This document shows positions 1,668-28,847 of a DNA stretch of 28,847 nucleotides, piece by piece. The position numbers and the translations under genes are program-made. Source of the stretch: Raillietiella orientalis (Eukaryota); assembly GCA_036172245.1 (NCBI GenBank), contig JAYWIR010000024.1:3100001-3128847 (forward strand). Reading direction: 5' to 3'. The notes beneath the pieces were generated by a model that had not been told where the DNA came from, searched no databases, and saw only the letters and a list, made by a program, of their open reading frames with translations. Every line of letters begins with the position of its first letter. Position 1 is the first letter of the stretch.

Positions 1668-1718
1668 CACCACCACGACCACCACAACCACGACGACCGC
1701 AGACACCACCACCATCAC
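1668..1718. repeat. Imperfect (CAC/GAC/AAC)n trinucleotide microsatellite, intronic
   Basis: caccaccacgaccaccacaaccacgacgacc...caccaccaccatcac. It explains the poly-His, poly-Thr and poly-Val runs in the ORF track. Confidence 0.8.
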
Positions 1719-3340: not shown

Positions 3341-4320
3341 GTGAGTAGCTGGGGCTCGTGTTCTGGCGGGCGGATAGATCTGGTTGCCTCTGAGGGGCCG
3401 GGGTTTCACGGAGGGGAGGGAAAAGGAAGCTGCGGCAAAGAGATTCCCCTTGGCTCGTCGCGCGAGAGCGCTGGGACTGCCCCGTTGAGAAGGAGGCCCG
3501 TTGGGGAGCAGGCCACGCTCGCCTCCGGCTCCCGCCCTGTGACAAAGTGGGGGTCGGACAGCTCTTCTCTAGGTTCCAATGAGAACGCCGCCTGAACCAT
3601 TTTCGACGGCGGAAGCGAGACCGCGCGGTTTTCACACCCCCTTGCGCGTACCACAGAGAGGGAAGCGCGAGCTCGGCATCCTGACGTGGTGCCACCTTCT
3701 CAGGACGAGGTCAGGTCGGTTCCAGTTCGCTGTTCTTCAGCTGTCCGAGGGTGCAGGAGAACCCTCTGGGCTCACGAGCTGGAGTCACGGAGACCCTCCA
3801 CCTCCAGAGAAACCTTCGGGAATTCTCCCGAGATGAAGTCGTTGCCAGCCGGTGCCGAAGCGGCTCCCAGCACGCACGTCGGGAGCAGCCCTCTCGGTGG
3901 AATCAGTCCAGCAGCGAGAAACGACCGACGCGAGTTCGCTTCCAGAAAGCGCTGTGCTGCGACCCCATCCGCCAGCGGAGGCACTCGCCAGTCGGCGACG
4001 GGAAGCGCGAAGAGCATTCCCACGTACCGGAACCGGAAGGAAGGGCGCTGATGATCGCTCGGAGCTTCCCGTGATGTTCCACCTATCGTCACGGACCTAC
4101 TCCGCCTGCCCTCCAGACAAACTCCCACCGAGTTTTGCCTAGCCCCCCAGACGCCACGTTGAATTCAGTGAACAGCCCCAAGAGTAGCCCCGTCAAGCAT
4201 GGCATTCAGAGGCATGCAGCCTCCGATTCCGGAGCGATCTCCTCGGAAACCGAAGCACATTGAATCCAAGTTTCCCAGCACCCGCGAAGCTGATGGAGAT
4301 TGGGATTTCACGGAGAGAGT

Positions 4321-4497
4321 GGAGCCACGCTTAGGAATCAATGAAGCCACCGTTGGGAAGAGTGAAGCCACCATTGGAAAGAGTGGAGACATTATTCGAA
4401 AGTCAGGTCACCACGGGATTGAGGGCAGCCATTGGAAACAGTCGAGCTACCATCACATACAGTGAAGCCACCATTGGATACAGTGAAACCAAAGTTC
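4321..4497. repeat. Degenerate 21-bp minisatellite, intronic
   Basis: Units such as gaagccaccgttgggaagagt, gaagccaccattggaaagagt, gagctaccatcacatacagt and gaagccaccattggatacagt; roughly 7-8 degenerate units. Confidence 0.8.
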
Positions 4498-5876
4498 GTC
4501 TTTCAGAGGACGTCGGAACACGCACTTGCAAAGCAGGTGCTTTCGAAGACATTCACCCTTTACAACCGAAGAGGCACTGTTGGGAAAGGCGCACCCTTCA
4601 AGGTTCTGCGCAGTGACTCTTTCATCGTCGCCGACGATGAACTCACCACCCTCGTATCCTGAAAACTTCATTCCGTTCATCCCGGATGTGTTCCAAGCTG
4701 CCTCTCTTCGACTCGGCACTTCACGCCGCCCAGTCCGAGACATCCGGTCGGAAATCGCAAGACACGCAGTTGGGAATTCCGGATTGACCGATAGACGGAA
4801 AAGTACGGATCTGCGAGATGGAACATTTGCGAGATGAATGCGGGATGGTAAGCAGCCACGCTCCGCTGACACGAGAACGGGAGAGTAAGCAAAGATACCG
4901 GTATTCGCACACGTTTGGAGGAAGCTCAATCGATCTTGTGCGGAGGATCTGCGGTTTGGATGGCTCTCCCTCTTGCCACCGACTCTTCCTTTGGGTGTGG
5001 TTTTCCTTGGAAGCTGCTACGCAGATGCTGTTTGAGGGCGGACATGCCACTGTGGTCGAGCAGAGGAGAAGAAAATCGTCAGTCGGGGCTCGTAGAATGT
5101 GCCTTTGAAGAGAAGAGACAAAGTGCTTGTCATTCGCAGATTCTATTTACGTCCATCTGTTCTACACAAGTGATGTACGGGGAGGTACAACCAATGAACA
5201 GGGGATTTTCCACCATATTCGCCACTTCTGGACTGTTTTCTCCATTTGATCGTTCAATCTAACGAGGATTCTTCGTCTCGGCTGGTATCCCAACCTATGC
5301 ATCCAGCGCGCCTCCTTGGAGAAGCGCATGCTGAAGCTGATATGCTCCACCCACCTTTGCTTCTATGAAAACTGGTGGTTTTCTAAGATTTCCTGACAGT
5401 GAGAGCCTGCGGCGATCTCGCTGACGGTTTCTGGTACTCCTTTGTCGATAAACTGGGAAGCTAGTCTCCTGAACCTGCTTTCCTTCCTTCGCCTCTTTTT
5501 CTGTGGTGCTCCTTTAGAGGATTCGTACGAGGAGGGGGCGTCCCATCTTCCTGGAGCAGCAATTTCGGCCTCAGTTCGGATGCTGGGTGTGGTGCTGAAA
5601 GGCGCTACTTATGTGCTCTCTGAGAAAAATAGAAATTCGTGCAGGCGGAACACTTTGATCTCGTCCAGAAGGCTGAGAAGCAATGGTACCAAGTGCCGGC
5701 GAAACGCGGAGGTTTCTTAAATTTTCATCTTGCCTACGCAAGATCAATCGGAGGGCATCTCAAATTCTTGTTCAATGCGCTTGAAGATTCGCGATTCGAG
5801 GACTGTGGTGAACTTTTGGAATGGAGGACTTTCTTCGCGCCTTGCCGTCAGTGACTCAAAAGCTCGGATGTTTCAG

Positions 5877-6044
5877 GAAACTGCAACGGAAAACGGCAAG
5901 GCCCACTTCGAGATGGAAGGTCCAAACCAAGGGAAGTCGTTGTACAACTCCAAGTACGAGAAAGTGCTCTCCGTCTTCCGCTGGACGTACCCGATAATTA
6001 TGATCTTCATCATCATGATATACTTCACGACTGTGGCTCTATAA
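5877..6044 (+). CDS. Cys-loop channel terminal exon (end of M3-M4 loop, M4, stop)
   Basis: Acceptor TTTCAG at 5871-5876, phase 0. Translation ETATENGKAHFE...KYEKVLSVFRWTYPIIMIFIIMIYFTTVAL* fits the M4 pattern RxxFP....Y. Additional loop exons between 3341 and 5876 cannot be excluded. Confidence 0.8.
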   Translation, partial: ETATENGKAHFEMEGPNQGKSLYNSKYEKVLSVFRWTYPIIMIFIIMIYFTTVAL

Positions 6045-6800: not shown

Positions 6801-7090
6801 CGACCCGCGTTGGCGGCCACTCGGCTGCGGTCTCCGCACGTGGCATCGAGCGTCGCGGGTTCGAATCCCCACGTAAAGGGTCGACGCCGAGAAACGGGTG
6901 AGTCGTGGGTTTCGAGTTCTCCCGCAAGATGACGCTGGTTGGCCTACGGGCTTCGGGTGCGGCCACGCGTGGAAGCCGGATCCCCCCTTCGACTGGCCGG
7001 GATTGGAAGTTGACCTTCCGGGATCCTTCCAGGAATCAAGAAGCACTGATTCCATTCGGGTTTCCCCTCCGGTTGTGAAGATGGCTCCAC
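6801..7090 (+). mobile_element. tRNA-derived SINE-like repeat, copy A
   Basis: A-box-like TGGCGGCC..CGG and B-box GGTTCGAATCC at 6858-6868. Clearly homologous to 12190-12460, e.g. cccgcaagatgacgctggttggcctac.ggcttcgggtgcgg and ttccaggaatcaag. Confidence 0.65.
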
Positions 7091-7856
7091 CCTCCATTGC
7101 GTGCCATGGAGCTGGTTGATACACCCCCTTCGGGGGGCTGCCGCTCCAGAGTGTAGGGGGGTTAGGGGTTCCCTTCAGAGACACCCCCTACCATCCCAGG
7201 TTTAGCCGCACTGCTACTGCGCTGCTGTAGTGAATCTCTGGTGTACAGGCAGCAGCCTTCAAAATATGCAAAGTGCCCAGAAGGGCACCTGCAGCAAGCA
7301 AAGTCCGTGACACTCACATCTTAAGCATCGTGCTTTTAGAGCGCGTGATTTGGGGGCACACGATTTTCATCCTCTTTTTATCCCCCGGTTCAGAAGAGGC
7401 TGAGAAAGTGACCGCTCTCCCGCGTTTTAAAATATGCGACGCCAGGAGCGCGATTCGGGAAACGTAGGCAAGCAGCGTCTCTTTTTGCTAGCGCGCTTTC
7501 GGCCGTTCTTGTCTTTCGTCGTCCATCCAGGAAGATCGGCTTTCGAATCGCGCAGGAGCTGAAGCCAAGTCGTTTCGTCGGCCTCAGACTGCGTTTACGA
7601 GCACCCGCTCTTCTCCGTCCATCGACGCACTCCCACTTGAAAACGGCATCCGACACACAGGTTGCTGAGCGCGATTCCCAAGATCGCCGGTCTACAAAGA
7701 ATTTGCCGGGTTGCCCGAGTGGATCGCTGCTTGTTTAAAGAGCTGCCAGCTTCACACCTCTGGATGCTTCCTTTCCTTGGATCAGTTCCCTGCGGCAATC
7801 CCCCTTGCTTGAATGCATCCACACTGGTTGTCTGCGGAGCATGCACCACGGAAATA

Positions 7857-8746
7857 CGAGGAGGATCTCAAAAGTAAGGGCGGATCGGTCATAAAGAAAG
7901 AACAACGAATAAGGGAAACAAAAATGTATTAGTGGTTCCAAGCACGTGCATCCTCACGTCATTTTTCTAGGTAATCTCCATGTTTTTTTCCTAAATACTT
8001 CTGATACCGTAGAACGAGCTCTTTGAAACCTCTTCATGAAGTTCCGTCAGGCCTGGGAGTCCAGGCCAGTTCAGCACTGCAGTTTTCCACTCCTCCTTAC
8101 TTCCTCGAAGCGTTGAGCCACTTCTTGAGGTGGAAAGGAGAGGTTGATTGATTAAAAAGTTCCCATTTGAATTTCTGAATGGTCTGGAATGTGCGGACAC
8201 GGCAGTGTGTGGGACCAAAAGGGTGGACCTAATGGAGCGTGGAGCCACCATCACTTCTCTTCGTCCACTGTGTAGGAACACTTTCCAGACTGCGGCTCGC
8301 CACTCAACAGAACCGACAGCGTGGAAGGCTGAGATCAGAAATTTTCTTCTCCTTCACGACAACGCGAGCCCACACACTGCTGTCCTCAGATTCCAGACAA
8401 TTCAGAAATTCAGATGGAAACTTTTTGATCACCCAGTCACCTCGCGCCCAGTGGCCACCACGTCTTCCTTCCTGCACCTCGAGAGGTGGCTCAACGATTC
8501 GAGGAACGGGAGGAGGAGTTGGAAACTGCAGTGCTGAACTGTCTGAACTCCCAAATGGAGGAGTTTCATGCAGAGGGTTTCAAAGAGCTCGTTCTACAGT
8601 ATCAAAAGTGTTTGGAGAAAAAAAGTGGTGACTGCGTAGGGAAGTGACATGGGAATGGATGCATTTGAGACCACTAATATATCTTTGTTTCTCTCATCTG
8701 TCCTTTCTTTATATCCGATCGACCCTTACTTTTAAAATGAACCTCG
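7857..8746. mobile_element. Non-autonomous fold-back mariner (Tc1/mariner) derivative
   Basis: TA flanks at 7855-7856 and 8747-8748. Termini CGAGG...AAAAGTAAGGG..GATCGG and the reverse complement. Frameshifted transposase motifs DLMERGATIT..TLSRLR..LLLHDNASPHTA..W..FDHP. Segment 7857-8213 is an inverted copy of about 8369-8746. Confidence 0.9.
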
Positions 8747-9766
8747 TACAAGCACGTGAAACCTGGGAAGAAAGGATTGTCCCAGCATCTCCGTAATCAA
8801 TCTGTCCTCCCTATCTCGTCCTCCTGAAATGGTCAGCTGCGGTTTTTAGTACTTCCTTGAATTCTCGTCGAGGGTTTGACAAGAAGCCCTATCGTTCGAC
8901 TGCTTCTTTCGTTCCCAGTTCAGCACGAGTCGGGACTCCTCGCTGGTTTGGAATTCCCCTAGCCATGCCGTCTCACCTGACAAAGTCTTGAAGATCCCCT
9001 CACTTCAGCAGGTACTGAGTGGCCTGAATCTTATTTATAGCCTTCTCTTTCGGAAAAATGACTGATGGGTTGTCAGCAACATGAGCCCCTCCAAAGTGTT
9101 CTCTTCCCCAAAGGGAATAACACATCCTCTCTCAAAGATCACAGCTTTCTCGCAGAGGAAAGTTGAATGTCCTCGAAACCGACCTCTGTTTGCAGATTGC
9201 TTGGAACCTTCCATCATCCATCACTCGGTGTTCCCTATAGGTGTGGCTCACTGTACCTGGATTTCCGCACGCAAATCCTGAAATGCGCGCTCCACTCTCA
9301 GCAACCAAAGAGTCAGCTCTCTCGATCATCGTCAGTTCGTCAGGATGCAGGGGTTCCAAGGACCGCGATGGCCTGCACGAGCTACATACGATTCTTACTG
9401 TCGAGCAAGACGGATAATGACCCCCAAAATTTAACACGGCAAGGGTTCTCTCTGCTGGATGCCTCCGAAGCACCCATGCAGCCGAAACACCAGAGGACGA
9501 TTCGCCTTGGGCGCCGCGCACCGGCGAAACTGGAACCCATCGGACCTGGCACAGTGGCGAAAGTCGTGGGTTCGAATCGCAGCAGTGAACCTATTTGTTC
9601 GTCTGTCTTGATTCTCCTAATCAGGAGTTGTTCCACACGCCACCGGCCCCACTGCTTTGTTCATCATCATTTTGACCTATTTCGGTCGTTGCATACCGTA
9701 AGCCATGACCAGAGACAAACCCCATCCAAGTGCCGTGTTACCCGCAGTGACCACTACCTGAGTTTG

Positions 9767-10559
9767 TTTTAGAACCTGGTAACGCTGGGGAGTTTATTGT
9801 AAAAATAATAAACATACATGTGTAGGGTAATCGTCCCTACATTGTCCGAAAATGTTCGGAACCAGCAGAGTAACCTGCACGCAGGCCGGCGAAATTCGCC
9901 TTGGCAGCGGAGGGGGACGGAGCAAACAAAAATAAAAATAAAACAAAAAAATATATACCAAAAAATGGGAGGGTTAGGGAAAGCATCACTGTCCGCTGGA
10001 CGGCGTTCTCTGCACTCTTTCCAGGATGCTCGCAAGTTACATCCGAGTATGCCTCAGGTAGGGCCATCTTGTTGCCGTCCGCGGGAAGCGCAGGGCGAAG
10101 CAGATGGCGTCCCTCTCATTCCGTTCTCCTCTCGCGTAGCCCCACAATCCCACGTAGGCAGCAAAGAGTTCCTGGAGATGCGGAGGGCGAATGGGCATCG
10201 CGCACGAAGAGGCGCTTCATCAAGTCCCTGGAATTGTCGGCCGGTGCACCAAGGGCAACCACAAGTGCCTGAAGGAAACACAGTCTACAAGCAGGTGCGG
10301 GAGCGATTCCCGTTCCCCGCACCTGCAGCGGTTTGGGTCCGCCGCTCCCCGGGTCCAGTGAGAGCAGCGGACCATGCACGGGAGATCCCCATGCAACAAC
10401 AGAAATGCCGACAACTCAGGGGGAGGGTGTGGTTGTTCTTCAGCGTGTGGCGGAGACCAGCTTCCATGTCTTTCCTGTGAGATTTCCAGCAGCTCATTCC
10501 AGCCCAATTGTCCTTTCGATGGGGCACTTGGGGTCTCAGCACTCATAAGCTGGCCCCAT
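9767..10559 (-). mobile_element. 5'-truncated L1/Tx1-like non-LTR retrotransposon, copy 1 (decayed ORF2 C-terminal zinc finger plus 3' UTR)
   Basis: Minus strand reads LLLHGDLPC..HWTRGAADPNRCRCGERESLPHLLVDC (zf-RVT-like). Candidate TSD CTGAGTTTG at 9758-9766 and 10560-10568. Confidence 0.85.
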
Positions 10560-11907
10560 CTGAGTTTGGTGTGCCCTGCGTCTCGTCTATTGCGTACCTG
10601 CTGCAGTACCAACAGCTCTTTCACGAGATCCACGGTTCGCGTTTCCTCCTCTTCTTCGAGCGTTTTTGATCGATCGTGTTCATCGCAACACTTACAGAGC
10701 GTCTTTTGGAGAGGCCTCTCGAAACGGTAAGGAACCACTCGTGAAGCAAAGCGAGTAAGGAGTGCACTGGTAAGAAAGGCGACCCCCGAGCGCAAACACG
10801 GCGAACACAGACAGATCGACGACTTTGCTTGAATTGAGGCAGCAAGAGCGTTAATGTGAATGAGGAACGCCCACATTCTTATGTCTACCCGTCCACCAAC
10901 ATCAGACAGCTGGTCAGTTCTTCGCGCTCGTTGCTAACCAGTGGCACAAGGGATCGAAGGTTCATTGGATTCGTCCATCCGTTCGTTCATCCTTTCCGTG
11001 AATTCTCCTTTGAGGTGTGTCTTGAAAGCTTTTGCCGTAACTGGGCGGGTTCGGTTGCCACTTCACAGAGCTCTGTGCCGGCAACGCTCGTTATGCAGCC
11101 AGTTCACCGAGACATTGGGAAGCCAGAAACACATGCCTTCGCACAGAAGAGTAGCCTTCTTCTCAAACGAGGCATCAGCAACCTTCAGCTAACGTGCACG
11201 CAAGCAGCGGCACTTCCTTCCGAGGACAGATGCATCGGACAGTCCTGCAAGGATCGCTTGAGGGTGCAGTCTGAGGTGGCTTTCCAAGAACGCGCGTCAC
11301 CCTCACCGTCACCCCAGTCGCCGTTGGGCGTTGAGGGATGTTTAGATCGGCAGCGGGCAGCCCGTTTTGCCCCGACGCGCCGCACTCAGCACGAGGGCAA
11401 CGAGTGGGCATGCTTCGCAAGCACCCACAACAAGGATATCTACGAAGTGCGTATCAGCCCCATCTTGATGACGCTGGGTTTCCGAGTTTATGCCATCGCA
11501 GTCATCTCGAGGACTCTGGCGCTTTCTCCAAGGCGGGTCGTAAACTATTCTCTTGGTCCAGCGACTTCCTATGCAAAGCTCGGAAACGTCACCGGAAGGA
11601 AATTTGAAATTGCGACGCATTACAGGAGTCTCTAATGGCTTCTGCATGTGACTCATGGGAATCCTTCTACGCCGATGCGCCAGCAGGTGGGACCATCACG
11701 TGCAGTTTGCCCGCAGGCAACAAGATGTTTCGTAGGTATTTGTCATCGCGGTGTTCTTTTGGACCGGCTGCCTGCAAAACTTAAGCGAACGAAGCGAATG
11801 GCAGCGGAGAACCGATTGTCCGTGCAAATGCGACCGTGCACATAGTTGTAAACAGGTATGGCTGATGGGAATGTACACATAGGTTTGTACGCAAGCATTA
11901 TTTTCAG

Positions 11908-12189: not shown

Positions 12190-12460
12190 CGGTCCTCGTT
12201 GGCAGCCGCATGGTTCTGCGGTCTCCGAGCGTGGCACCAAGAGTCGCGGGTTCGAATCTCCACGTGGAGGGTCGACGGCGAGAACGGGGAATGAGTCGTG
12301 AGTTTCGAGTTCCCCCGCAAGATGACGCTGGTTGGCCTACAGGCTTCGGGTGCGGGTTCCCCGGTCGGCTGGTAGGGACTGGAAGTTGACCTCCTCCGAT
12401 ATTCTTCCAGGAATCAAGGAACCCTTCGAAGTTTCCCTCCAGTTGTGAAAAGGGAGCTCT
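12190..12460 (+). mobile_element. tRNA-derived SINE-like repeat, copy B
   Basis: B-box GGTTCGAATCT at 12249-12259. Collinear homology to 6801-7090. The element may continue to about 13000. Confidence 0.65.
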
Positions 12461-14137: not shown

Positions 14138-15590
14138 TTATCATCCGGCCACGCCAGGACGTTTCCTATAAAAAATAAAAAACATACATGTGTAGGGTAA
14201 TCGTCCCTACATTGTCCGAAAATGTTCGGAACCAGCAGAGTAACCTGCACGCAGGCCGGCGAAATTCGCCTTGGCAGCGGAGGGGGACGGAGCAAACAAA
14301 AATAAAAATAAAACAAAAAAATATATACCAAAAAATGGGAGGGTTAGGGAAAGCATCACTGTCCGCTGGACGGCGTTCTCTGCACTCTTTCCAGGATGCT
14401 CGCAAGTTACATCCGAGTATGCCTCAGGTAGGGCCATCTTGTTGCCGTCCGCGGGAAGCGCAGGGCGAAGCAGATGGCGTCCCTCTCATTCCGTTCTCCT
14501 CTCGCGTAGCCCCACAATCCCACGTAGGCAGCAAAGAGTTCCTGGAGATGCGGAGGGCGAATGGGCATCGCGCACGAAGAGGCGCTTCATCACGTCCCTG
14601 GAATTGCCGGCCGGTGCACCAAGGGCAACCACAAGTGCCTGAAGGAAACACAGTCTACAAGCAGGTGCGGGAGCGATTCCCGTTCCCCGCACCTGCAGCG
14701 GTTTGGGTCCGCCGCTCCCCGGGTCCAGTGAGAGCAGCGGACCTTGCACGGGAGATCCCCATGCAACAAAAGAAATGCCGACAATTCAGGGGGAGGGTGT
14801 GGTTGTTCTTCAGCGTGTGGCGGAGTCCAGCTTCCATGTCTTCCTGTGAGATTTCCAGCAGCTCGCCCCAGCTCAATGGTCCCTTCGATGGGACACTTGA
14901 GATTGAAGCGTCCGTGAACAGGCCCGAAGAACAACCACCTAATTCCTTCGTTCAATTGTCTATTGCGCAACTGACCATCCATTTGGCCGTCTGGTTACTG
15001 CCCAGGTGCTACCTGAGGGAGGGCGGGGCCGCGACAAGGGAGGTTCTTTGCGCCCACGCACGCGTGGCGGGCTGCACGATGACGTCCTGCAGCAAGCGGT
15101 TCTTGTTGGAGGAGTGCAGCATTCGCTGCCGCAGCCTCAGGCTCGCTTCGTTGTTTTTGTGTTTTCCATGCGCGGACGGTTTCCTGCAACCAGGAACCAC
15201 CTCGCGCGGTCTGAAAGAAGACCCAGTAGTTGGTCCTGGTCAGCTCGGCCAGTGGCCGGAGCTCCAGTCCGCAGCTGGACACGTTTGTTTACGCCGCCGC
15301 TCCAAGAAAGAAGACCGTCCCGCGTAGCCGGTGGCTCGCTTGACCAGTCAGCGTGCGGGCTCGTGCCAGTTCCTGCTCCAAAGCTTCGTCACTAGGGCAA
15401 GTGTCCACCACCGGAGCTACCGCTCCAGGCGATCCAGCGTCACGGGGCCGAGGCCTCCGTCGCGATGCATAGCGCACAAGTGTTTCAAGAGGACTCGCTG
15501 CCTTCCTCTACCCCACAGGGAGATTCTCAGGAGTTTTCTTTTTCTTGGACCTGAATGGTGTGCCCTCCAAGGACCTCCCGGTTCCCTCTC
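14138..15590 (-). mobile_element. 5'-truncated L1/Tx1-like non-LTR retrotransposon, copy 2 (decayed)
   Basis: Minus strand has LWGRGRQRVLLKHLCAMHRDGGLGPVTL (the FxW..RV....L.....GGLG post-RT motif of L1/Tx1 ORF2) near 15435-15520 and the same zinc finger as copy 1. Contains stops and frameshifts. The 5' boundary is approximate. Confidence 0.85.
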
Positions 15591-15599
15591 TGTGTGAGG

Positions 15600-16231
15600 A
15601 CACTTCCCTGTTCCCGCTCCGTTCCCGGACATACCATGGAGACCAACGCGAGTCACGGACAGGTCAAGAGAATCCTGGATTCTCTTCTGACCAGGGAGGG
15701 GAAACTCAAGGAGGAAGTGGCAGTTCTGCTGTTTACACACCGGGAATTCCAGTGCAATCAGCGCAGGAACCTGGTTCCCAGGGGAGTTGAAGTCTCCCCG
15801 AACTGTTCCAGGCGACGGAATCGATCCCGCACCTCCTATTGTCCTGCAGTGCCTTGGAGGACGCGTGGCGGAGACCAGCCTTGGCAGTCCGTCATCCTCA
15901 GGCCACAGCTTCGTGCTTGCTGCGGCGCATCGTCACTCAAAGAGAGCTGAAGACGGACGCCGCGATCGCAACCATCTGTGGCATCCGAAAAGGAAGAAAA
16001 GAAAGGAAACCAAAGACCTCGTTCCTACCTTCCTGCCTTGTTTCTATCTATTTATTGTCCCCTCCCTTTGTTCCCCACTTTTCTAGAAGCGGGCTACGTG
16101 CCGGTGGTCATCCCAAATGAACCTTTCTTTTTGTTTTTTTGTTTTTGTCATCTTCTGTATTTAGGGGACACTTTTCCCCTGGATTGTAGTTTATTTTAAA
16201 ATAAACGTGCCGGCGTGACCCCAGGTACAAA
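15600..16231 (+). mobile_element. 5'-truncated L1/Tx1-like element, copy 4 (more divergent family member, decayed)
   Basis: Frameshifted LLFTHREFQCNQRR..VSPNCSR../ESIPHLLLSCSALEDAW zinc-finger remnant, a T-rich 3' UTR, and terminal AATAAACGTGCCGGCGTGACC similar to the other copies. Boundaries approximate. Confidence 0.7.
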
Positions 16232-19200
16232 TCCGAGCATTCCATCCCGGAAACGTCAGGTTCATCCTTTGACCCGAGCTGGAAGTGTTTTCTCCTCCAT
16301 CATCCATCTCTTCATCTGCAACTTCTTTCGCAGATAAGGATAACTGCTCGACTTTTCGTGTTTCTGCGCGTGTCGCGAACCCCCCGCGCGGAGAAGGTCA
16401 GATCTGCGTGAAGACGTGGATCAGGAGTTTCTTACCATACGCAGCAGCTCAAGCTGGTCCATATAAAGTCTACAGATACTTGAAGAATCATCTCCGCGGA
16501 TTTGATGCACAGATGTCCGATGACAAACGTGAAGAGGATGCGGGCTTCCAAATGAAGCGGAAGCAGGGCATCCTGTTTGCATCCCGAGAGCTAGACACCC
16601 ATCTCCGCACTCTTCTTCCCTGTCCCGAGTCCCTTCCCGTGTCTTTTGCTTGTGAGCTTATGCATACACAGCAGCCTCACGTAGGACGCGGGAAACGTTT
16701 CCCATTGTATCAACACGCGTTCTACGAGCCCTACTCACTCGTGATCAAATAGCATCCATGAAAAATATGAAATGTCTCCTAAACGTGATAAAGACGCAAT
16801 ATTTATTATTCAATATTCGAAACAGCAAAGGAAATTCGATGTCCTCATTCATCGTTCGACTTGAAGATAAAAAAAAAAAAAAAATTGTAGGCATTTCTTG
16901 ATGGGTAACCAATTTAAACGATTCCGTCGTCTCAGCTCCACCACTCTTGTTGTTGGAAACTGCATCTTCTTGCGCTACGTTGTTCGCAAAAAAAAGGAAC
17001 GAAATGGAATTCGACCTACTAAAATCACGTGTTTGTGTTCCGGCAATATATGCAACATATATAGATAGATAGATATCCGCGAAAAAGGATATATCTCGTA
17101 AAGGAACACCGAAGCATTCATCCATCACTCATCATCTCTTTTGCTATCGAAGAAAGAGCCATGCATCTTAAGGGTTGCCGCTCCATGAGAAGCACATCTG
17201 ATGACGAAGGTTTCGTGCAACATCCCGATTCGAGAATGCCGCTACTCAGAGCGAGGATTGAATTCGAATCGTTCGACCCGGAAGTCAAGGGCGACCCATC
17301 AAATAAGGGCGTCAGCGAAAGGGAAAGTTCTCTTTGCGCTTTGATGGTGTCTCATTTTCTATTTCTTACGGGGAGGGAGCTTTCCATTCTCATTATGCCT
17401 GGAAATCGCCTATCGACACCTCCCCTTGAAGAGTTGATTTTTTCTCTCCCCTTGTGAGAACCAATGGGAATTTGTGCCTCGTTCTCGCTTTCTGTAGAGG
17501 GCTGCCCTCATGCCGTGAAGGGAAGCCGCGAACGCTTCCTCACCTTCTTCATCGAACACTCCTCCTTCATTCATTCAGCTTGCAAGTCAAAAGTCATCCT
17601 CTTGCAGACTGCTCGCACTTCCGCAGTCTCCCTCCGAGTATCACTTCGCTCTTTGCATAGTGGGAGGGATTCGCCTCATGCCGTTATCAACGAACATTTC
17701 TTGAGCTGTCCGACGTTACTCTTCACCGACAAGATGACAGTGTACGATCCATCGCTTAGCCATGGCTACCCCCATGTAACATAACACTTATTAAGCACCA
17801 GCACTCGCTACCCTCTCGCCATGCACCTGCAGTCAGCTTGGGGATCCTCTTGCAGCTTGTACGCCGTCTCAGTAGCATCATCCCGTCGTTACGAAGCTGT
17901 AGATACCACAAACGAAACAGTCAGCAACGCTCCATAAAACGAATTCTCTACCTTCACCTGGGAAATTACGTGCGTAGTTACTATGCATAATCCACAAAGG
18001 ATAATACATCTGCATAAGATTATAATGCGATTTCTTTACATTCCTGTATATTATACAACTGCATAAATCAAAACCACGTTATGCATTCGCACATATTTCT
18101 GTGATGTCGCATGCTCTTGTGGCGTTCCTACATCGAAGCATGGCATCTCCTCTTATCTGGGACGTAACATCATTCCATGCACGCTGCTTCCCATGTCGAT
18201 ACATTTCGTCAGATAAAACCACCGATTTCGCTCTTCCTCCATAAACAGCCATTTTCCGTACAGCAAACAACGCTCAGTGCTCACTTCTTGAGTTTCCCGG
18301 ATTCCCGAATTCTGCAGGATCGTTTTCCTCGGCCGGATAACATTTGCGAGCATCGTCCATGCAGCACTTCAATTTGGAGAACGTGGCAACACTGAGAATC
18401 GGCCAGGCTTTGAACGAGGCGCCACGCTGGTCCCGGAGCGCCGCTTCAACCCGTGAGCCATCGTCGCTTTGCTCCCTCGCGGTTCGTGCAAAAAACAACC
18501 AAGTGATCAAATGAAGGCTCTCTCCGGAATGTGCAACTCTCCTGTCGGTCCTTCTGGCGTGCTTTCCCTTCCAGCTGTCGCGTGCAATCTCTTCCTGCTT
18601 CGCTGCGCCTCATTTCGCTCCGTCTAGAGGTTCCGGGAAAACTTTCCACTCACTGTTCTCTTCCCCTCTACCTCCCATCTCCTTGTCTCTGCTCCTTCCC
18701 ACAGAAAATAAATGCTCGCTTCTTAACACCAAAAATCCTTCAACGCCTCTGCACATTAATTAAAAGAGTGTTTCACGGTGCTTAACAGTGCCAACGAAGT
18801 GCTAAGGACGACCACTTTTCCACAAAGAATGTTTTCTTTTCTTTTTTTTGTGCAAACTGTGAAACATAAAAGTCTCGTTACCTCGTTTTTTTTTTTTTTT
18901 TCTTTTTCTACCTCGGAGAAATGTGTGTACGCGTTCTCCGAGCCAACAGCAATTATAACGAGGAGATACGGATATGAGGCACAAAAATTAGCATAGCCGT
19001 CATCTGTTGAAAATCAAGGAACTTCGTTTTTCTGACGATGCACAGCGCTTGCTGAACCATAGGGATCAAGAGGCCACGGAAGACAAGGGGTAAGTCGTCA
19101 TACTGGACGTCACTTGCTCCTTCGTAAGCGCCCCATGAACTCCGAGGAAGCAAGGCAGAGAGAAAGAGGGCAAACAACGATGACTGCCTCTCCACAACCA

Positions 19201-21222
19201 TCAAAGAGCTCCGGTAAGGGCACCTGTCGTGGAACCCCGCACATCCGGAGATGAGACCCAGGAAATCTAACGTGTCCAGAGGACTGAGGACCCCGTGTCA
19301 CGATGCGGAACTCGTCAGCAAAGCGATGTGTGGCAACGTCCAGCTCTGCCCAGGTACTTCCTGAACCTATCGGTTGGGTCATCGGTCGTTGTGGCGACCG
19401 CTGCTGCATCGCTGCCTCGATGTGCACTTTGAATATATGAGGTTCATCTGTGAAAGTGACTCGGACTTACAGTGTTGAACGACACATTCCATTCCGAAGC
19501 AAAACAAGCCCATCTTGTGCAAGGATGCACACTTTGCTCACCCATCTAACTATTGACTGCTCAAGCTGTGCAGATGAAGGAGTTCGCTGGAAAATGGGGA
19601 TGCGGACGCATCGGAAAGAGATGTGTTGTAACCGCAGAAGAAAGCAAATCACGAGCCTTCCGACGCACGTTTTCTTATTCTTTCCGAGTAATGAGAAATG
19701 CATTGCTACATACAGAAGATGACGTAATTTTCAAGTAGGACATGGCTACTTCCAGACCATGCATTTCCAAAAGTTCCTCTATGCCTCTTCCGATGGTATG
19801 CCTCCAAACCGAACAAATCATCAGGCTTGTTTCTTTCGTGGCTCTGCTTCATAGGGAACGTTTACGAGATGAGTTGCCTCGCAATCACCACGGGCCATCT
19901 TGAGTTACCTGCATGTGCATTTTTTGCTGATCGCTGTCTCGAGTCGGCGGCCCAGACAAGAGCGCTCGGTCAACTGAAGGGGAGGCGCAACTTGCCGGTG
20001 ATTGCGAAAAGTCGACAGCATGTCTTGAAAGAATGCAGAGTGAATCCGAATACAGAACTGAACAGACATTTCCCTACTTTGCTCCGTTTTCCGCCAACTT
20101 TTGAGTACATTTCTTTTGCAGTAATCTTTCGCTTTTGATCAAAATCCAGCTTCAGATGTGCAACCATGGTTAGAACAAAGAGTAAGCACACTCCCTCAAG
20201 TTTCGAATCTCTACTGAACCCAAATTATTATGTGAAATTTTAGAGTATCCGAATTTTAGAATGCGCGGAATGTCGAATCTCTAGCAATCCATTGAAAACC
20301 TGAAATCGGACCCAAAACATGGAATTGCTCTTATTATTCCTGTGATTCCTTTGAAAATGAATCTTTAGTTTCATGTGAATTCCTACACACGACATTCTAT
20401 TCTATCTTCCATTGCTGCTGATGCAGCCCCTACCGTGGTAGTAGAAAGGACCGCGAACCAGCAAAGCACTGGCCAGAGAGACACTTCTCGTGCAAACGAG
20501 GAGAAGAGAACGGTTCCTTCCCAAGCGTCCACCGTGCAATTTTCCTTTTCTGGGAACCATGACGATTTAAGATTGCGATGCTCCCATTCCATCTCGAAGG
20601 AATTTTCCACTCGGGCGAGAGTATCTTCCTATCATTCATGGCAGTTGCAAAATCGTACACAACCCATGCATCATGAGAAAAATACATATACACGCAGTTG
20701 TAGCATTTGCAGTCCGTAGAATTGGACGATTTCAAGTACGATCGTACAAGACGCCAAAAGCCATTTGCGACTGCGGATTCTATTTTGACTTTAGAATGAA
20801 CAGTGTCCGTGCTCACGGATTCCTTCCGCGGGGAGGCTTTGTTTTTACAAGATCGTGTTACAGTCAGCGTTACAGTGATCTTTGCACATCCGCGCTGCCG
20901 TATGTTTTGGAATACGCTCCAAAATATTGCGTTTTCTTTTCCCTTGCAAAAGCTACTGAAATCCTCTTATCTTGACTAACATGAGACCTTTCTTCCTGTA
21001 CAGGTAATTGGGAATGATTTTCCGAATGTTCAAATCTATTCCATCCTAGATGCGTTTGTTCATTCCAAGTAATTATGTCCACATACAACTATGTCATCGA
21101 TAATAATTGCCGATGGAATTGTTGAAGTTGTCGTATATTCATGTTTCCTTTTGTATGTGTTCTCCTTCATCTTCCAATTGTACACATATCCTTTCAAGAC
21201 CTATGTTTAGGCTAACCGAATT

Positions 21223-22068
21223 TCTCCTGCCGTATCGCAGGCAGAGAGAAGTTGATGAGCGGCTGGTCCATGGGGGAACTGGCGGACGCCACTACCCCTA
21301 GCGTCCAGCCGAGAGGTCTAGTGAGATGGGGCGAGCTGCTCGGCATCCCGATGGATGACCTGAAGTGGCCCCCGCTATTTATTGGTTCGAGGATCCTCCC
21401 CCTGAAGTGGCAGGAGTCGGCGCTTCTGTTGTTGCATTGGGGCCTGCCCTGCAACGCACGCCGCCACCACTGGACTAGGGGTCGAGTAGATCCTGCCTGC
21501 ATCAGGTGTGGGGAGCGGGAAACCCTCCCCCACCTCCTTGTTGATTGTGCTGCCCTCCGACCCCTGTGGGAACGTCTTCGTGCCTCCCTACGGATCCAGG
21601 AGGGCAGCCAGCCCAGAGACGTGTTTCGGCTTCTGTTCGTGCAGGATGCCCTGCGACCAGCCGCTGCCCTGGCTGCACTTTGCTGCGTCCGTGGGATCGT
21701 GACGTGCTGGAGCGACGTGAGAACACCGAGCCACGACAGGGTTGCCGTCGAACTTGCAGTCCGCTACCTGAGGATTGCGACCAGATGGCCCCACCTGGGA
21801 ATCATGCGGACGGACCTCGAGGGCATCCTGCAAAGGATGGACCCTCCTCCCAGTGGTCAGTGATCCCTCCCCAACCCTCCAAAATCTTTTTGTTTCTTAT
21901 GTTTTATTTTTCTTTTTGTTTTTCCCCCATCCCCTTCCGCTGCCGAGGAGAGTCGCGCCGGTCTGCGTACCGGCAACCCGGCAGGTCCTGTTGAGTTGGC
22001 CGTAGTGGGGCCTCGTACCACGAACAATAGAGAATTTTAATAAACGCCCCGGCGTGACCGGGTGGCAA
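21223..22068 (+). mobile_element. 5'-truncated L1/Tx1-like element, copy 3, with uninterrupted ORF2 C-terminus (to stop at 21863)
   Basis: LLLLHWGLPCNARRHHWTRGRVDPACIRCGERETLPHLLVDC is an intact CxxC..H....C finger. Perfect 11-bp TSD CTAACCGAATT at 21212-21222 and 22069-22079. Confidence 0.9.
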
Positions 22069-23247
22069 CTAACCGAATTGGGTTTGTAAGATTGGTCACG
22101 AGACTCCCTGAAGTTTTCCATCAATTTACACAAACATAAGCTTTGTCATTTCTCAATTTCTAAGCACGAATGATACAACCCTTCAACATTTTCAACTCAG
22201 AGTTCCTTATTTCCATAATGCATGCGTTCCAGAAATTCCTCTATTCGTCATATTTTCCTTTTAAAACTGCTTGTTGATGCGCTTTTCATGGCATCATATT
22301 GCTTTTACGAGTGGCACATTTTCGGGTAACCTCCCCAGAATGCTTTCTCTTATACCGTACAAAAACAAGGAGAACAGCTCGCGCGTCTTCAACATCACGG
22401 ATCTGACTTTCTATGCATAGTATTTCGCATCTATTCAATTGCCAGACTGCTGCTCTCTGCTCCATCAGATTCAAAGGAAACTTCCAAGGCTACAAGTGCA
22501 AATGGCCTCTGTAGTCAAACGTCGGACTATTTTGACCTTTTTTTGTAAATATTTCTTACGCATAAATATTTAGTGTACTATAACGTTGAATTTTTATTTG
22601 AAAGTTCGCATTTTCTTTAGTAGAATACTTTAGTTGGAGCCGCTTTATAATTGTCAATTTCCGTATATCTAGTCATTCGTTCATGATTTTGCTCACTGAA
22701 ATTAGCAATTGAAAATGACGTTTGGATAAAAAGTAGTTGCGCAAAACATTCTTTGAGTCGAACGCATTCAATGAAACACCCGAGACTGACTGATTTTCAA
22801 TTGAATGACGAATATTTCGCACATTTGCCTATCCCGTTAAGATTTCGATTTTTCTTCCTCACTTCTATGAAAAAACAGAATAAACACGAAAAGTGAACTT
22901 GTCGTTGTGAAAGTGAAAGAACAAGCCAAAAAAAATAGCAATTGGTGCAACTTTTATTTGAAATAAGGTGGCACCTGTGAAATTGCCAGAAAAAGAAGTG
23001 CGGGAATTGAAATATCTTTTGGGAGGTGTGTATTTGATTCTGACACGACAAAACGAATTCATCACTGCTTGATTCGTGCATTGTGAATGCCCTGTTTTTG
23101 CTTGCCCCTTTCGTGTGTTGATTTAGTAGTGGATGTGAAAGTGGTATGTCGCTTGTTAGTGATCTCGAAGAAAGTTTGCGTTGAAGATTGTTGTTGTGGA
23201 CGGAAGTAACTTTTTTTTTCCCGGAAAGAACAACCTTGTAAAACAAA

Positions 23248-24624
23248 ATGGGCAAGAAATTTTCCATGGAGAAAGCCGCCTCAATCCCGGCAAAGTCCCC
23301 GAGAGCTTCTAGCAGTTCAAGTCAGGAGACTGGGGATAGTAACGTCCAGGTAGATGTATCCCTCATTGAGAACGAAGACGAGAAAATGTTGAAAGAGATG
23401 GATGCAATTCGCTATCCGCTGGCCTACTCACCAAGAGTAGAAATTGAAAGATACGTTCCACTTCCAATGGAAAGCATGTCCTCCAATTACTCTTCCACCG
23501 TTGACATTAGTGAGATGGGAAGCATAACCCCCTTGAAGGCCGGAAAGGCATTGAGATTTGATGCGTATTCTGCAGACCTGATCACACCCCAATCCTGTGA
23601 AACCTCTTCCATAACAAAGTCACGTATTCCTTCTTCACATTCTCCCAACATTTCTTGTGTAACTAACACTGATTTTTTAAGCATTGTTGAAAAAATGAAA
23701 AGATCCAGAAGTTCAGCATCTATGCTAGATGTGAAATGCCAGTCTCCAAAAGACTTTTCCGAACCCACCAAGCAAAGTCATTATTTTACCAGACAATCAG
23801 TTCATTCAGAGGCTGAACGTGCAGCTGACATTTCCCAGAAAAGCCGTCTTGATACATTGGTGAGAAGTCCTGCCTCCCAAAGGTCAAGTGTTGCACAGGA
23901 ACACCCAAATCCCCCAAAATCGAAAGCACTTCATTCTTCAGTTGCATCTCAGCATTTCCTTTTTGAAGAATCAGAAACGTTAGCTGCTTCAAGTGTTCAT
24001 ATTGCACGAAACTCCACCGAATTTGCAAGTATTGGAAGTGCAGGATCCACACTAGTTCAGATGGATGCCAAATTGAGATCACCAGCAAGAAAGACAAAAG
24101 AGAAGACTGTGCTGCAGGTGAAGTCCAATAACCTCACTAACCCACAGCTGTCAGTTGATGTAAGGAAGAGGAATAAACTTGCAACTACCATCAAATCTTC
24201 CAGGAAAGCTTCCAAGAAAAGATCTGATGATGATGAATTTGATACATTTACTTTTTTGAAGGCACATATGCTAAAAACATTCACAAAGTCATTTATTGCC
24301 GATTTAGCTTCAGAGTTACATTTGGATAAAGATGCTTTGAATCTTTTGGTGGAAGTTATACATAAAATGTGTTTAAATGGGTTGAACAGTATGATGCAAT
24401 ATGCACTTGAAGACTGTCGACTTGACATTCAACCAGTAGATGCCATTAGACTGTTATATGAGAAAGGCTTCATAAAATCCAAGTGGGATTTTTTCCAGCT
24501 CTGTTCCAAGTATTTACCATGGGCTCATGCTGAAAAATTGTTACCTAAAACTTCCACCGATGAAAATGCGATTGGTTTGGACTGGCAACAGATGAAGTGG
24601 GGTGATGTCGATTTATCCAAATAA
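23248..24624 (+). CDS. CENPT: Probable centromere protein T (CENP-T/Cnn1/Cnp20-like), 458 aa, single coding exon
   Basis: The longest ORF in the window, with a good start context (aaacaaaATGg). About 330 aa of Ser-rich low-complexity N-terminus with S/T-P sites. The C-terminus LHLDKDALNLLVEVIHKMC..LNSMMQYALEDCRLDIQPVDAIRLLYEKGFI..DFFQLCSKYLPWAHAEKLLP follows the CENP-T histone fold and its diagnostic extension pattern (A.HA.R.T...ED..LL..RQG.......L....LP.E....L.P). Confidence 0.75.
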   Translation: MGKKFSMEKAASIPAKSPRASSSSSQETGDSNVQVDVSLIENEDEKMLKEMDAIRYPLAYSPRVEIERYVPLPMESMSSNYSSTVDISEMGSITPLKAGKALRFDAYSADLITPQSCETSSITKSRIPSSHSPNISCVTNTDFLSIVEKMKRSRSSASMLDVKCQSPKDFSEPTKQSHYFTRQSVHSEAERAADISQKSRLDTLVRSPASQRSSVAQEHPNPPKSKALHSSVASQHFLFEESETLAASSVHIARNSTEFASIGSAGSTLVQMDAKLRSPARKTKEKTVLQVKSNNLTNPQLSVDVRKRNKLATTIKSSRKASKKRSDDDEFDTFTFLKAHMLKTFTKSFIADLASELHLDKDALNLLVEVIHKMCLNGLNSMMQYALEDCRLDIQPVDAIRLLYEKGFIKSKWDFFQLCSKYLPWAHAEKLLPKTSTDENAIGLDWQQMKWGDVDLSK

Positions 24625-27600
24625 GTGGATTTTATTGCAGATTATATTACTTTAATACGGCTGTGCATGAAGTTATGATGGCGAAAACAAAGATATTTCT
24701 TCATGCCTTGTTTGAAGTAAATAATAGAATTTAACTTATTCTTTACTTGGAAACAGCATAAATGAACACCGGAGAGATCCATTTACAGATCGGTCTACAT
24801 TTTGCCAATTACAAGTGCGAGCTCCTACTAAACTACTAAGTAAATTATCAGGTTCATGATCCCCATTCTTCGTCAATGGCAAGAGCTCCATGCGTTCATT
24901 GCACTACTCTTCTACCATTGACGGATGAGCAGTATGCAGAAAGGAACTAATTTGAAAACAAAACCGAACGAGTAGTGCGCTTCAGTTCAATTAAAGAATG
25001 CAATGCAGTGCACTCGTGCTAATTTTCATCATTGTGCTCGTCTGACTTTTCAACCCCTGAAATTTGTAAAAACCGGAGGCTTAGTCTTCGCGAAAAAATC
25101 CTTTTTTTGTTCGTCTTCCTTTCGTTTTCCGTTCCTGTCAACACCATCTTCGTCTTCACGGCAACTGCTTCTTCGTCCCACATCTTGGTTTGCCGCTTTT
25201 CACTTTTTTCCACCTTCTTCGGTTGACTCATCCCGTTTGTCTGCTCCCTCCCCTCCGTTCGTCAGTCAGCTCCCTTCCTTCCTCCTGCTCACCTGCTTTT
25301 TTTCACGTTCGATTCCTCCGCCGCCGCCGCCATCTCTCTGTCTTCCGAGTCACTTTTCTTTGCCTTTCTTTCTTTTGCCCCCTTTCCTTCCCGTTTCCAC
25401 CCCTTCCTCCCTTGTGCCAGTCCGATTCTCTAAAACGCATCTTTCCTGGTTTTGTTTTATTCTTCTCTGGAACGGCCCCCGTCCGTCCAGATGGGAACTT
25501 TCTCACTTTCCCGTCATCCGGCGCCACGCCTCCGATTCCTGAAAACGAAAAGTCTGACTTGCCCGCATGCCACTCCCTCAGCTTACCCACACCACCACGA
25601 GAGGTGGCTCGGAGAGCGTGCACGCATCCCTCCCCACTCCCATGGGAAGGATATGGACGGACGTGTGGTGCCCCCCGACACCACACAGCCCGGCTGCTCT
25701 TCTCTTTGAGGTCCGCATCAGGGGAGCGCCTCCAGGTGTGCGCGATCAGCCCTGCGATCTGGAAACGGACGCAGCAAAGTTCGAGAATCCCCAGGCACGT
25801 GCACCTACCTCCTTCCTCAAGATGCAGAGGGTGGCTGCTGCCCCCACACCGCACGCCAGCCAGGTCTTGAGAGACGGCATGGCTTCCAAGCAGGAAATAG
25901 GAGCTGGCAGAGCACAGGATCAATTTCGCGTGGAGGAAATCCCTTCAGCTTCTCGGTCCTTTTCTTTTTTTTTTTTTTTGGAATGGAGCGTATCCTAGGA
26001 AACGATCTCGGCTAACGTGGGCTTCGTCTGCCGAGTGGCACTGGTGAGTTACGCGCTGCCCATTTGCGTGGCGATGTCGATGCTCAAGGATTCCCATCTA
26101 GGATGCAAGAAGAGCGAAAGCAAAAACTAATACCGTGGCTTCCGGACACCCGAAATCTCGGAAGGCTCTTCCCTGTTTTCCCCTTCTTTTCCCCTTCTTG
26201 CCAAACCATTCTGATCGTTTCCTTCGTTCCGCCATCTTCTTTCGCTCTGCCTGTCGCTTTTTCTCCTTCCAACGACCAGCCTCCCTTTCTTCATAACCTT
26301 CTTAACTTTATTCCTAGGTCTCTCATCGTACCCCTATTTTATCCCGCTTTTTCATCCCCCTGCCTTTTTCCGCGTCTTCATTATCAGAGCAGTTTCATCC
26401 CCTGCTTCCCTCTTTTTGTTGCCTACCCAGTTTTCTCAATTACTGAAGAATGTTGCTCTATTCCCTTCCCACAATTCTTTTGGCGCGAGGATTTGCTCCG
26501 AGACTTTTTATTATCCACCTTGCAAAATACAGAAGGTACAAGAAGAACACTTTTCGTATTCACGCTGTTCCGCAGCTGCTCTTCTTTCCTTCATGAATCT
26601 TTCTCAAGAACACGGAGCGAATTCTGCAGCCATGGGGAAACTTCAGTGGTTGCGGATACGAGGAGACGCTGAAAAGCTTCGGGATACCGCAATCTTCCTG
26701 CGGGTGCACTCCCATTCGCCGCTCATTCTACTCAGCTTCATGACGGTGTCATGTGGAGAGCGAGGTTTCCTCATGAGTCGCTGTCACGTGGCTGTTTGCA
26801 ATGGCGCACAGCAACCACAAATATCCATTTCGCGAGTTGCGCTTGGCGACTGCATTTCCGCCTGAATCCATCGCGATCGGTTTCCGTAAGCAAGTCAGCA
26901 GTCGACTGCGGTCATGTTGTTTCTTCTGGTGTTTCGGTTCCTCGTGCACTAATGCACCCATTGAATTTTGTGCATCATGTCTGGAAAGGGTGGTCTGTGG
27001 CCAAGTCGTGCCCATTTCAACATGAAAGATTACGGATGTCTGAAAGGACGCTTCCAAGTGTGCTGATAGGAAGCGCCTACAAAGGAGTCTGAAGCAGGGG
27101 CCGCGTCCTTTCCAAAACGAAAAAGCGTATTCGTAGGAGGAAAGAGGCCAGTAGCGGAGGGCGGAAGTACAAAGGAGGGAAGAATTAAAGGCTGCTTCGG
27201 TGCTGGATGGTCGACTTTTGGTGCAAATACCGCGTAATCGATAGCAACAAAGTTCTCTCCAATTTTCCATTGGCGACTTCAGGTGCCGTCGTGTGTTCAC
27301 CTCGCTTCGGTGCAGGTGGATGGCGGTATTGCGTCCTCGCAAATCTCACCTCCGAGAAGTGTTGCAGGAAACCTTGGACTACAACCTTCCTCTCATCGTT
27401 CCACCACAAGAAAAAGGCGATGCAACCCCATGTCAGTTGAAAACGGAGTTCCCTCTTTCACAGTGGACTGTTTGCTCTCGTGCGTGCTCTGCCCTCAGTT
27501 CCTCATCTGGATTGCTCTTCGCGGATTAGGTCAACCGCTTTGAAAAAATGGAATCACGATGGGCAACCGCTGAAAAAAGCGACCCCACGCTGTTGATGTC

Positions 27601-28847
27601 TTTTCGTTGGGGCGAGCGGTGCCCCCCCTGACCGCCTACGTCCTTCTGCAATCAGGAAAACCGGATGCTTCGTCCACTGGCGTCGGAATTGTGCACGCCA
27701 TTGCGAAGGTATTGACGTGCGGCTACACTGGCAGAACTGGCATCGCAGCGCTTGCATTGCATGTCCGTGGGAAAGGCAAACATTCCACTCAGTTTTTATC
27801 TTCCGACGAAAGAGGATGTTGTTCAAGCGCTGCGCACGACCCCAAATCCCGTCTCTTGGTTGCAGGAAGGTTGGTTGCCTTTTCTTTTTAATTCCAGAAA
27901 GGAGGTAGAGCTAACCGTTCGCCATCGCACTAGCCGGGAGGAACACAAAGAGTCACTTCTCTTTGTGTTGCTTTCTTCCGAGGACTGAGAAAGAGTGGGA
28001 AACGTTGCAGTGTTTCTCAATTGATTGGAAACAGAATTTTGAAATGGGAGGACAGGAGTCTCTTGGAATCGTGGGGTTATGCACAATCCTTTATGGAAGA
28101 CAATGGACAGGATGATCGAAAACGTTCAACTCTTCTCCATCACAGGGAGGAAATCCTCAACAACGGAAGCTCTGGACCAGGAGCGGAGGAAGCAGCCACG
28201 CAAGGTTCCAGGAACCGCATGGCGTGAAGCTTGCACGACTGCCGGTACGTGGGAACGGTCGCGGAAGCAACGGGGAGAAAGGCGGGTTGGGTTTTTGTTG
28301 CTAAAGAGAAGCCTCTTTAGGAGGTTTGCGTTGCCTCTCACCTCGCTGCAATGGTGGATGCAGAGCAAATCGGAGGCGATTGGTCGCCGAAGGGCAACTC
28401 ACCGGCAGCTGGTGCTCGACGCACAGATTTGCGCGCGACACGCTAGGTCACTGTTATGCACCACCGTCCGCGAACATCCGCGCTTTTTCTACTCTCCGAT
28501 TGCTGTCGATGATCCCGCTGAGCGACAGGCGCCACTCCCGGTCGTTCGTCTTCTTCGACGAGTCCGCATCCTTTCTCAGAGACGTGGCTGGCGTCCAGTT
28601 GGACGTGAGGATTCGACAAGCCCAACAAAGTCCGCATCGTTCGAACACCGGTGTCCAGGGTTGTTTCCGCACACTGTTCTCGCACTCCTATCTTCTTCCC
28701 TCCGCTTGCACCTCCTCGTTTCCCTCCAGCGCCCTCCCCCCCCTTTAAGAGCTTCTCATGCGTCATGAAGGATGCCTTCTTTGCAGTTCCCGCGCCGACT
28801 GTCGCCGACGCCCGCTAAAGTCAGGTCGCAACGGGCGCCTTCATTTC

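Follow-up and report, generated by a model that had tools for sequence, protein, structure and literature searches.

Does the 458-codon open reading frame at 23248-24624 (+) of the window, the 28,847-nt stretch of DNA analysed here, encode CENP-T, the kinetochore protein that ties chromosomes to the spindle in cell division, and if so, is its histone fold of the kind that pairs with CENP-W? A first-pass annotation had described this frame as a divergent, intronless CENP-T-like gene and found its presence in an invertebrate surprising. The surprise was overstated: CENP-T is known across arthropods. Beetles are the only insect order from which it has not been reported, and outside the insects it has been found in ticks, Limulus, a shrimp, and a millipede (PMC12678787). 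Since the family is already described across arthropods, the ORF would be a further member of it, one that mainly closes a gap in its tree. The most likely reading is that it encodes a divergent, fast-evolving CENP-T of this known family, from an arthropod lineage that is probably unsampled.

The reading frame and its second copy

The frame runs for 458 aa without interruption from an ATG in good context, with an in-frame stop two codons 5' of this ATG. The probability of 458 open codons by chance at the local base composition is ~2e-13, and the other five frames carry 13-36 stops over the same interval. The upstream stop and the improbability of such a frame by chance indicate that the ORF is real. 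Its description as intronless stands insofar as the coding frame is uninterrupted, and the term applies to the genomic frame, which is known from DNA alone. The ORF lies within an AT-rich island (GC 0.38-0.43), while the rest of the window is GC-rich and full of repeats, and its GC3 of 0.38 equals that of the CENP-L exon described below.

The genome that was searched, a 210 Mb assembly in 491 contigs, contains a near-identical second copy at G000:C30:21607-22980, in which 4 of 1377 nt are changed (I195F, R200H, and two silent changes). The block that carries this copy (14465-28847 in the window) spans at least 14.4 kb; one instance lies at the end of contig C24 and the other opens contig C30, and the two are 97-99% identical, with a divergence of 0.29% in the CDS versus 0.28-0.31% in the flanks. 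On the 5' side of the block the two contigs differ (18 kb compared), and the edge falls in a repeat. Either this segment was duplicated very recently, or the assembly forks here. With only 4 differences, a comparison of the two ORF copies has no power to reveal selection.

The source animal

Mitochondrial COI points to a pentastomid (tongue worm), a parasitic crustacean. Armillifer armillatus (77%), A. agkistrodontis (76%), and Linguatula arctica (75%) are in the top four of the 120 matches listed, and a tree of 16 rows, 15 of them picked from those matches and with the pentastomids as its only crustaceans, joins the sequence to these three species with 100/100 support. Placing it with a mite or with a psocid instead is rejected (p-AU 0.0005 and 0.001, respectively), and the sequence has 17 states in common with the pentastomids alone, compared with 2 in common with the mite alone. 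The mitochondrial composition (A 36, C 29, T 28, G 7%) resembles that of A. agkistrodontis, which is both support for the placement and a warning of compositional attraction. The animal is therefore probably a pentastomid (Pancrustacea, Oligostraca), and an arthropod in any case. No oligostracan appears in the species list of PMC12678787, and a literature search conducted largely outside subscription papers found no kinetochore paper on pentastomids or Oligostraca.

The mitochondrial contig (G000:C282) has ~560 nt of noncoding sequence between cox1 and cox2, trnK moved beside trnR, and a tRNA cluster G-E-N-F-A-S ahead of nad3. The 54 COX1 matches across the genome point to many NUMTs.

A CENP-T_C match that covers the two-helix extension

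In a search against 24,736 Pfam models the sole match of the ORF was CENP-T_C (PF15511), with an E value of 5.5e-5 and 23.7 bits, or 7.1e-6 and 26.5 bits for the domain only, and both scores fall below the gathering cut-off of 28.1 bits. The match places 94 residues (aa 338-431; nt 24259-24540) on 94 model positions (9-102). As a best match alone this is not diagnostic, since H4 of this genome reaches 33.1 bits with the same model, above the ORF. At the level of the profile, the feature that separates the ORF from H4 is its coverage of the two-helix extension specific to CENP-T. The model has 21 matches in the genome, and only the ORF and its second copy continue past position 79 to position 102; the H4 and CenH3-like controls end at 77-79. 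Twenty of these 21 matches were translated (15 + 5), and they include what we take to be H4, H3, H4 remnants, a CenH3-like exon, and a TAF9-like exon. The genome's H4 and the CenH3-like exon each match 7 histone-clan families versus 1 for the ORF, which matches no Histone, TAF, or TFIID model at E values up to 10 and does not match the CENP-S family (PF15630). The profile search proposed with the first-pass annotation thus prefers CENP-T_C to the CENP-S, TAF, and H4 families and covers the extension, at a score under the cut-off. A language-model feature search of the ESM Atlas also placed a CENP-T cluster first, at 0.88 with 172 shared features, a result at the level of a lead, with the next family at 0.81.

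The histone-fold domain (aa 338-406; 24259-24465, +) comprises alpha1, a long alpha2, and alpha3, as assigned from PF15511 and from the helices of low-confidence AF2 models. It is followed by the extension (aa 408-433; 24469-24546, +), which corresponds to PF15511 positions 80-102, is predicted as two helices, and ends in YLP...LLP. The motif had been given as LP.....LLP; the extension is present, with LP and LLP six residues apart rather than five. Aligned by eye with vertebrate CENP-T, D360-P433 extends over 74 aa without gaps with 14 of 74 residues identical (~19%), and the extension aligns gaplessly with that of mayfly CENP-T at 10 of 26. The comparison sequences for vertebrates and mayfly come from the supplement of PMC12678787. 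The gapless alignment claimed for the last ~100 aa holds from alpha2 on only, because alpha1/L1 is possibly offset by one residue, and a 25-aa C-terminal tail (24547-24621, +; AF2 pLDDT <50) follows the domain. The alignment by eye also bears out that EDCRLD (aa 388-393; 24409-24426, +) occupies the L2 loop position where vertebrates have HAGRKT, so that the K and T of the vertebrate loop are lost and acidic residues gained. In chicken CENP-T this loop presumably holds a DNA-binding lysine, a point for which we found no literature match.

Direct sequence comparison was less informative. PDB sequence searches with the ORF returned LRR and dehydrogenase noise only, with no match to solved CENP-T, and phmmer against 1.84 billion representatives returned 3 ankyrin-repeat proteins only and no true relative. 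A word search with aa 325-445 found none among 59 candidates (lengths 251-802 only), and the extension alone, a short query, had no match in Pfam or PDB sequences and none usable in the Atlas. Ankyrin-repeat and LRR identities were rejected, as these scores add up matches to a short motif that recurs, and neither family appears in the Pfam result. Against pieces of the genome's own H4, H3, CenH3, CENP-S, H2A, and H2B the ORF shows no significant similarity (P 0.12-0.65), while P is 0.013 for CENP-X and 0.005 for a POLE3-like protein (9 proteins compared).

Two AF2 single-sequence models, with pLDDT of 53 and 63, have the expected helix order. They run alpha1 upstream into one long helix, show a break in alpha2 at ~aa 380, and fold up into a compact bundle; the extension is modelled as two helices with pLDDT ~68-79. 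Foldseek with a low-confidence model ranked chicken CENP-T (3vh6_A) 23rd (E 3.1, TM 0.32). VIA-align, whose stated noise level is Z ~8, matched the low-confidence models only to generic bundles, with Z no higher than 7, among them cyclin/TFIIB-like and spidroin structures at Z ~6, and its match lists contained no histone folds. Lone histone folds modelled without an alignment or a partner are expected to collapse.

The N-terminal arm and the basic patch

Ahead of the domain is a Ser-rich arm (aa 1-305; 23248-24162, +), which by analogy with the family we presume to be a flexible linker to the outer kinetochore. The disorder attributed to this arm is plausible given a Ser content of 18.5% over ~330 aa and the lack of a Pfam match in aa 1-329, but a crude FoldIndex is borderline at 0.006. 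The eight S/T-P sites are present as described (S17, S61, T94, T113, S132, S166, S207, and S278), as are the two full CDK sites TPLK (T94) and SPAR (S278), but in 10,000 shuffles of aa 1-330 their enrichment was marginal for S/T-P (8 versus 4.4 expected, P 0.043), and the full consensus, at 2 versus 0.65 expected (P 0.14), did not exceed chance. No TPRxLL-type Spc24/25 motif was recognised in the arm, where no S/T-P is followed by the vertebrate pattern. Two amphipathic segments are candidate outer-kinetochore binding helices, one at aa 40-58 (23365-23421, +; hydrophobic moment 1.22) and one at aa 140-152 (23665-23703, +; hydrophobic moment 1.39), 8 residues past S132-P. Between arm and alpha1 lies a basic patch (aa 306-325; 24163-24222, +) with 10 K/R in 20 residues, which by analogy with silkmoth is a candidate DNA-binding or NLS region.

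Other kinetochore genes in the genome

A CCAN context exists for the ORF, since the genome encodes CENP-S, CENP-X, CENP-L, a CENP-K exon, and a CenH3-like gene. CENP-X was found with an E value of 6.8e-13, and CENP-S is a separate gene of two exons on contig C13. The CENP-L candidate at G000:C18:1850600-1851361 (E 6.5e-9) is a 186-aa exon, which ends in a frame break that may be a tiny intron or an assembly error. The C-terminal exon of CENP-K at G000:C6:3165696-3165842 has a Pfam E value of 3.6e-4 and only two matches in the PDB, both to human CENP-K (E 0.044 and 0.16). The setting of this exon is GC-rich (GC3 0.67), whereas the other kinetochore genes lie in AT-rich DNA. At G000:C23:387928-388600 (-) is a divergent H3 with introns of ~45 nt, an Arg-rich tail, and a lengthened loop 1, which on these features we read as CenH3-like. 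Introns are present in CenH3, CENP-S, CENP-X, and CENP-K of this genome.

Contigs C17, C28, and C45 carry divergent variants of H2B as well as a divergent H3 variant that is duplicated, and several H3/H4 copies in the histone clusters of C8 and C39 are frameshifted, which suggests assembly base errors or pseudogenes.

The exon-by-exon search, which is of low sensitivity, gave no matches for the profiles of CENP-I, CENP-N, CENP-M, and CENP-C and only E 8.3 for CENP-H. CENP-W was likewise not detected by the profiles PF15510 and PF00808. In the same search Ndc80 reached E 0.065, Spc25 E 1.9, and Mis12 E 0.009, and because these controls were barely seen the blanks for CENP-W, I, N, M, H, and C carry little weight. 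Three PF15510 matches were considered as CENP-W and rejected, one as noise and two as exons that we take to be Dr1-like and POLE4-like. No CENP-W-like sequence was found among the 41 PF00808 matches, 25 of which were translated (22 + 3) and 16 attributed from their location to histones, CenH3, or neighbouring exons, and a general histone-fold search scored only 40 candidates. The partner survey suggested with the first-pass annotation therefore recovered CENP-K, CENP-L, and a CenH3-like gene, and at this low sensitivity detected no CENP-W, CENP-I, or CENP-N. Together, the profile match with its extension, the Atlas score of 0.88, and the separate CENP-S, CENP-X, and other CCAN genes support the identity first proposed for the ORF, that of a CENP-T/CCAN component.

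How the protein may work

In other species, CENP-T contacts DNA with alpha1 and with basic residues upstream of it and docks on CENP-K through its extension, and its CDK-regulated N-terminal motifs recruit Ndc80 and Mis12 (PMC12678787, PMC5371998, PMC9252888). The observed reading frame, the profile match with the extension, the domain order, and the co-occurring CCAN genes allow a mechanism to be proposed on this pattern. The C-terminal histone fold, of the canonical length seen in vertebrates and shrimp, would pair with a small, divergent CENP-W; the basic patch and alpha1 would grip centromeric DNA; and the extension would dock on CENP-K of CENP-HIKM. In mitosis, CDK1 would be expected to phosphorylate the Ser-rich arm, which could then recruit the Ndc80 complex, the Mis12 complex, or both. 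Loss-of-function data in silkmoth point to Mis12 and not Ndc80 (bioRxiv 10.1101/836262). DNA grip and CENP-K docking are reasonable expectations because the basic patch, the extension, and a CENP-K gene are all present. The loss of basic charge at EDCRLD, which according to the first-pass annotation could alter DNA binding, need not matter, because insects have lost the L2 loop altogether and still bind DNA, and the silkmoth protein binds DNA with alpha1 and the upstream basic residues rather than with L2 (PMC12678787).

An important question is whether CENP-W is present and undetected or has been lost. From the start of alpha2 to the LP of the extension we count 63 aa, as in vertebrates, versus 55-56 in a moth and a mayfly that have the monomeric fold, a count made by eye from an approximate anchor. 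This spacing favours a canonical, CENP-W-dependent handshake, and we consider it probable that the ORF is a CENP-T orthologue and CCAN subunit whose canonical fold is paired with a CENP-W that escaped detection. It is rather unlikely that CENP-T works here after the loss of CENP-W, its fold being stabilised by itself (through a helix at aa 332-345 or the tail) or by CENP-X as partner. Such a loss would be consistent with the detection of CENP-S and CENP-X but not CENP-W, with the long alpha1 helix and collapsed bundle of the AF2 models, and with the degenerate L2 loop, and at least one origin, perhaps a second, of CENP-T without CENP-W is known from arthropods (PMC12678787). However, the spacing is canonical, the genome search was blunt enough that the near-universal Ndc80, Spc25, and Mis12 gave the E values above and only 40 candidates were scored, and the collapse of a partnerless, alignment-free model is expected anyway. 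An independent loss in this arthropod, with a fold of canonical length that shed its L2 contact loop, was stabilised in cis or by CENP-X, and kept CenH3 and CENP-S/X, is given the same low probability.

Departing further from an undetected or lost CENP-W, the ORF could derive from CENP-T without being a kinetochore linker, as a silent or degenerate retrocopy or a repurposed chromatin protein, which we regard as improbable. It is intronless, versus the intron-bearing CenH3, CENP-S, CENP-X, and CENP-K, it sits among LINE remnants, its L2 loop is atypical, and between copies its CDS is no more conserved than the flanks (0.29% versus 0.28-0.31%). Yet with 4 differences the copies are too close for measuring selection, no intron-bearing parent was found in the genome, all 458 codons are intact behind a good ATG context, GC3 equals that of the CENP-L exon, and extension residues are conserved with both insects and vertebrates. 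We give slightly less credit still to the idea that the domain is not CENP-T at all but H4-like, a TAF, a CENP-S paralogue, or a cyclin-box-like or repeat-like helical bundle that matches by chance. The Pfam score under the cut-off, the cyclin/TFIIB-like and spidroin bundles that are the models' best structural matches (Z ~6), and the ankyrin-repeat and LRR proteins that are the top sequence matches would fit this idea, but the structural scores are below the noise level of Z ~8 and the ankyrin and LRR scores are repeat sums for families absent from the Pfam result. Moreover, the ORF matches no other histone-clan family, the genome's H4, H3, CenH3, CENP-S, H2A, and H2B align with it without significance (P 0.12-0.65), and a long arm followed by a terminal fold and extension is the layout of CENP-T.

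Comparison with known CENP-T proteins

With vertebrate CENP-T the ORF shares a low-complexity arm, a histone fold with extension, the spacing from alpha2 to the extension, S/T-P sites, and a basic patch, whereas the vertebrate HAGRKT loop is replaced here, no TPRxLL motif was recognised, and identity is ~19% over 74 aa. Compared with the canonical CENP-T/W systems, it has a single coding exon and its CENP-W is undetected. Partnerless forms are reported from insects and ticks, while the canonical fold together with CENP-W is reported from Limulus, a shrimp, and a millipede (PMC12678787). We liken the ORF to the canonical proteins of Penaeus, Helicorthomorpha, and Limulus by their description, not by sequence. 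With the monomeric CENP-T of insects (Bombyx mori and others) it shares a degenerate L2 and an undetected CENP-W, and its extension is closer to that of insects (10/26 with mayfly) than to that of vertebrates. Unlike the insect proteins, it does not have the shortening of 7-8 residues between alpha2 and the extension, its arm is ~330 aa where theirs is mostly >900 aa (PMC12678787, bioRxiv 10.1101/836262), and its genome keeps a CenH3-like gene and CENP-S/X. The insect-type fold has a shortened alpha2-alpha3 part, with alpha3 lying parallel to alpha2 and the extension occupying the CENP-W slot; the canonical length counted by eye argues against it here, and the low-confidence models did not resolve this geometry. 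The tick CENP-T that lacks CENP-W resembles it in canonical helices and a helix-forming segment before alpha1 (PMC12678787 Fig. EV5C-E), but ticks are a different arthropod lineage, and for some of them a tail or helix is modelled as filling the CENP-W slot (PMC12678787). CENP-S and histone H4 have a related H4-type fold that scores on PF15511, but both are without the extension and the long arm, and their genes lie at other loci of this genome. The supplements of bioRxiv 10.1101/836262 list further CENP-T sequences, which could include non-insect taxa.

If the probable reading is right, CENP-T extends to Oligostraca, the tongue worms and their kin, a reduced endoparasite keeps a CCAN, and the view gains support that the partnerless fold of insects arose only once insects had split from other pancrustaceans. 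The divergent sequence is useful for building arthropod CENP-T profiles. A true absence of CENP-W would raise the importance of the ORF, as it would add a third structural answer to the problem of a histone fold without a partner and would break the proposed link between the absence of CENP-S/X from the kinetochore and the loss of CENP-W.

Other features of the window

The 3' part of a gene for a Cys-loop ligand-gated ion channel occupies 1-6044 (+). It includes a ligand-binding exon (LBD) at 1-60 (PF02931 E 4.9e-5), a transmembrane exon at ~2999-3292 (PF02932 E 0.0015), and a probable last exon at ~5900-6044; the gene is single-copy, with its nearest paralogues 25-27% identical. An element of ~900 bp at 7855-8750 has long terminal inverted repeats, with arms at 7909-8030 and 8576-8697, and many copies genome-wide at 71-78% identity. 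Within it, the frame at 8148-8537 is what we take to be a remnant of a mariner transposase, which Pfam did not confirm for this frame. LINE-like remnants lie at 9801-10933, 14171-15327, and 21216-21863, with zf-RVT matches at E 6e-4 and 0.0085. The edge of the block in common with contig C30 is marked by a 300-nt direct repeat whose units at 9801 and 14171 match exactly. A short repeat is present in two copies (85-95% identical) at 6825-6962 and 12216-12355; it contains a B-box-like GGTTCGAATC and is possibly a tRNA-derived SINE.
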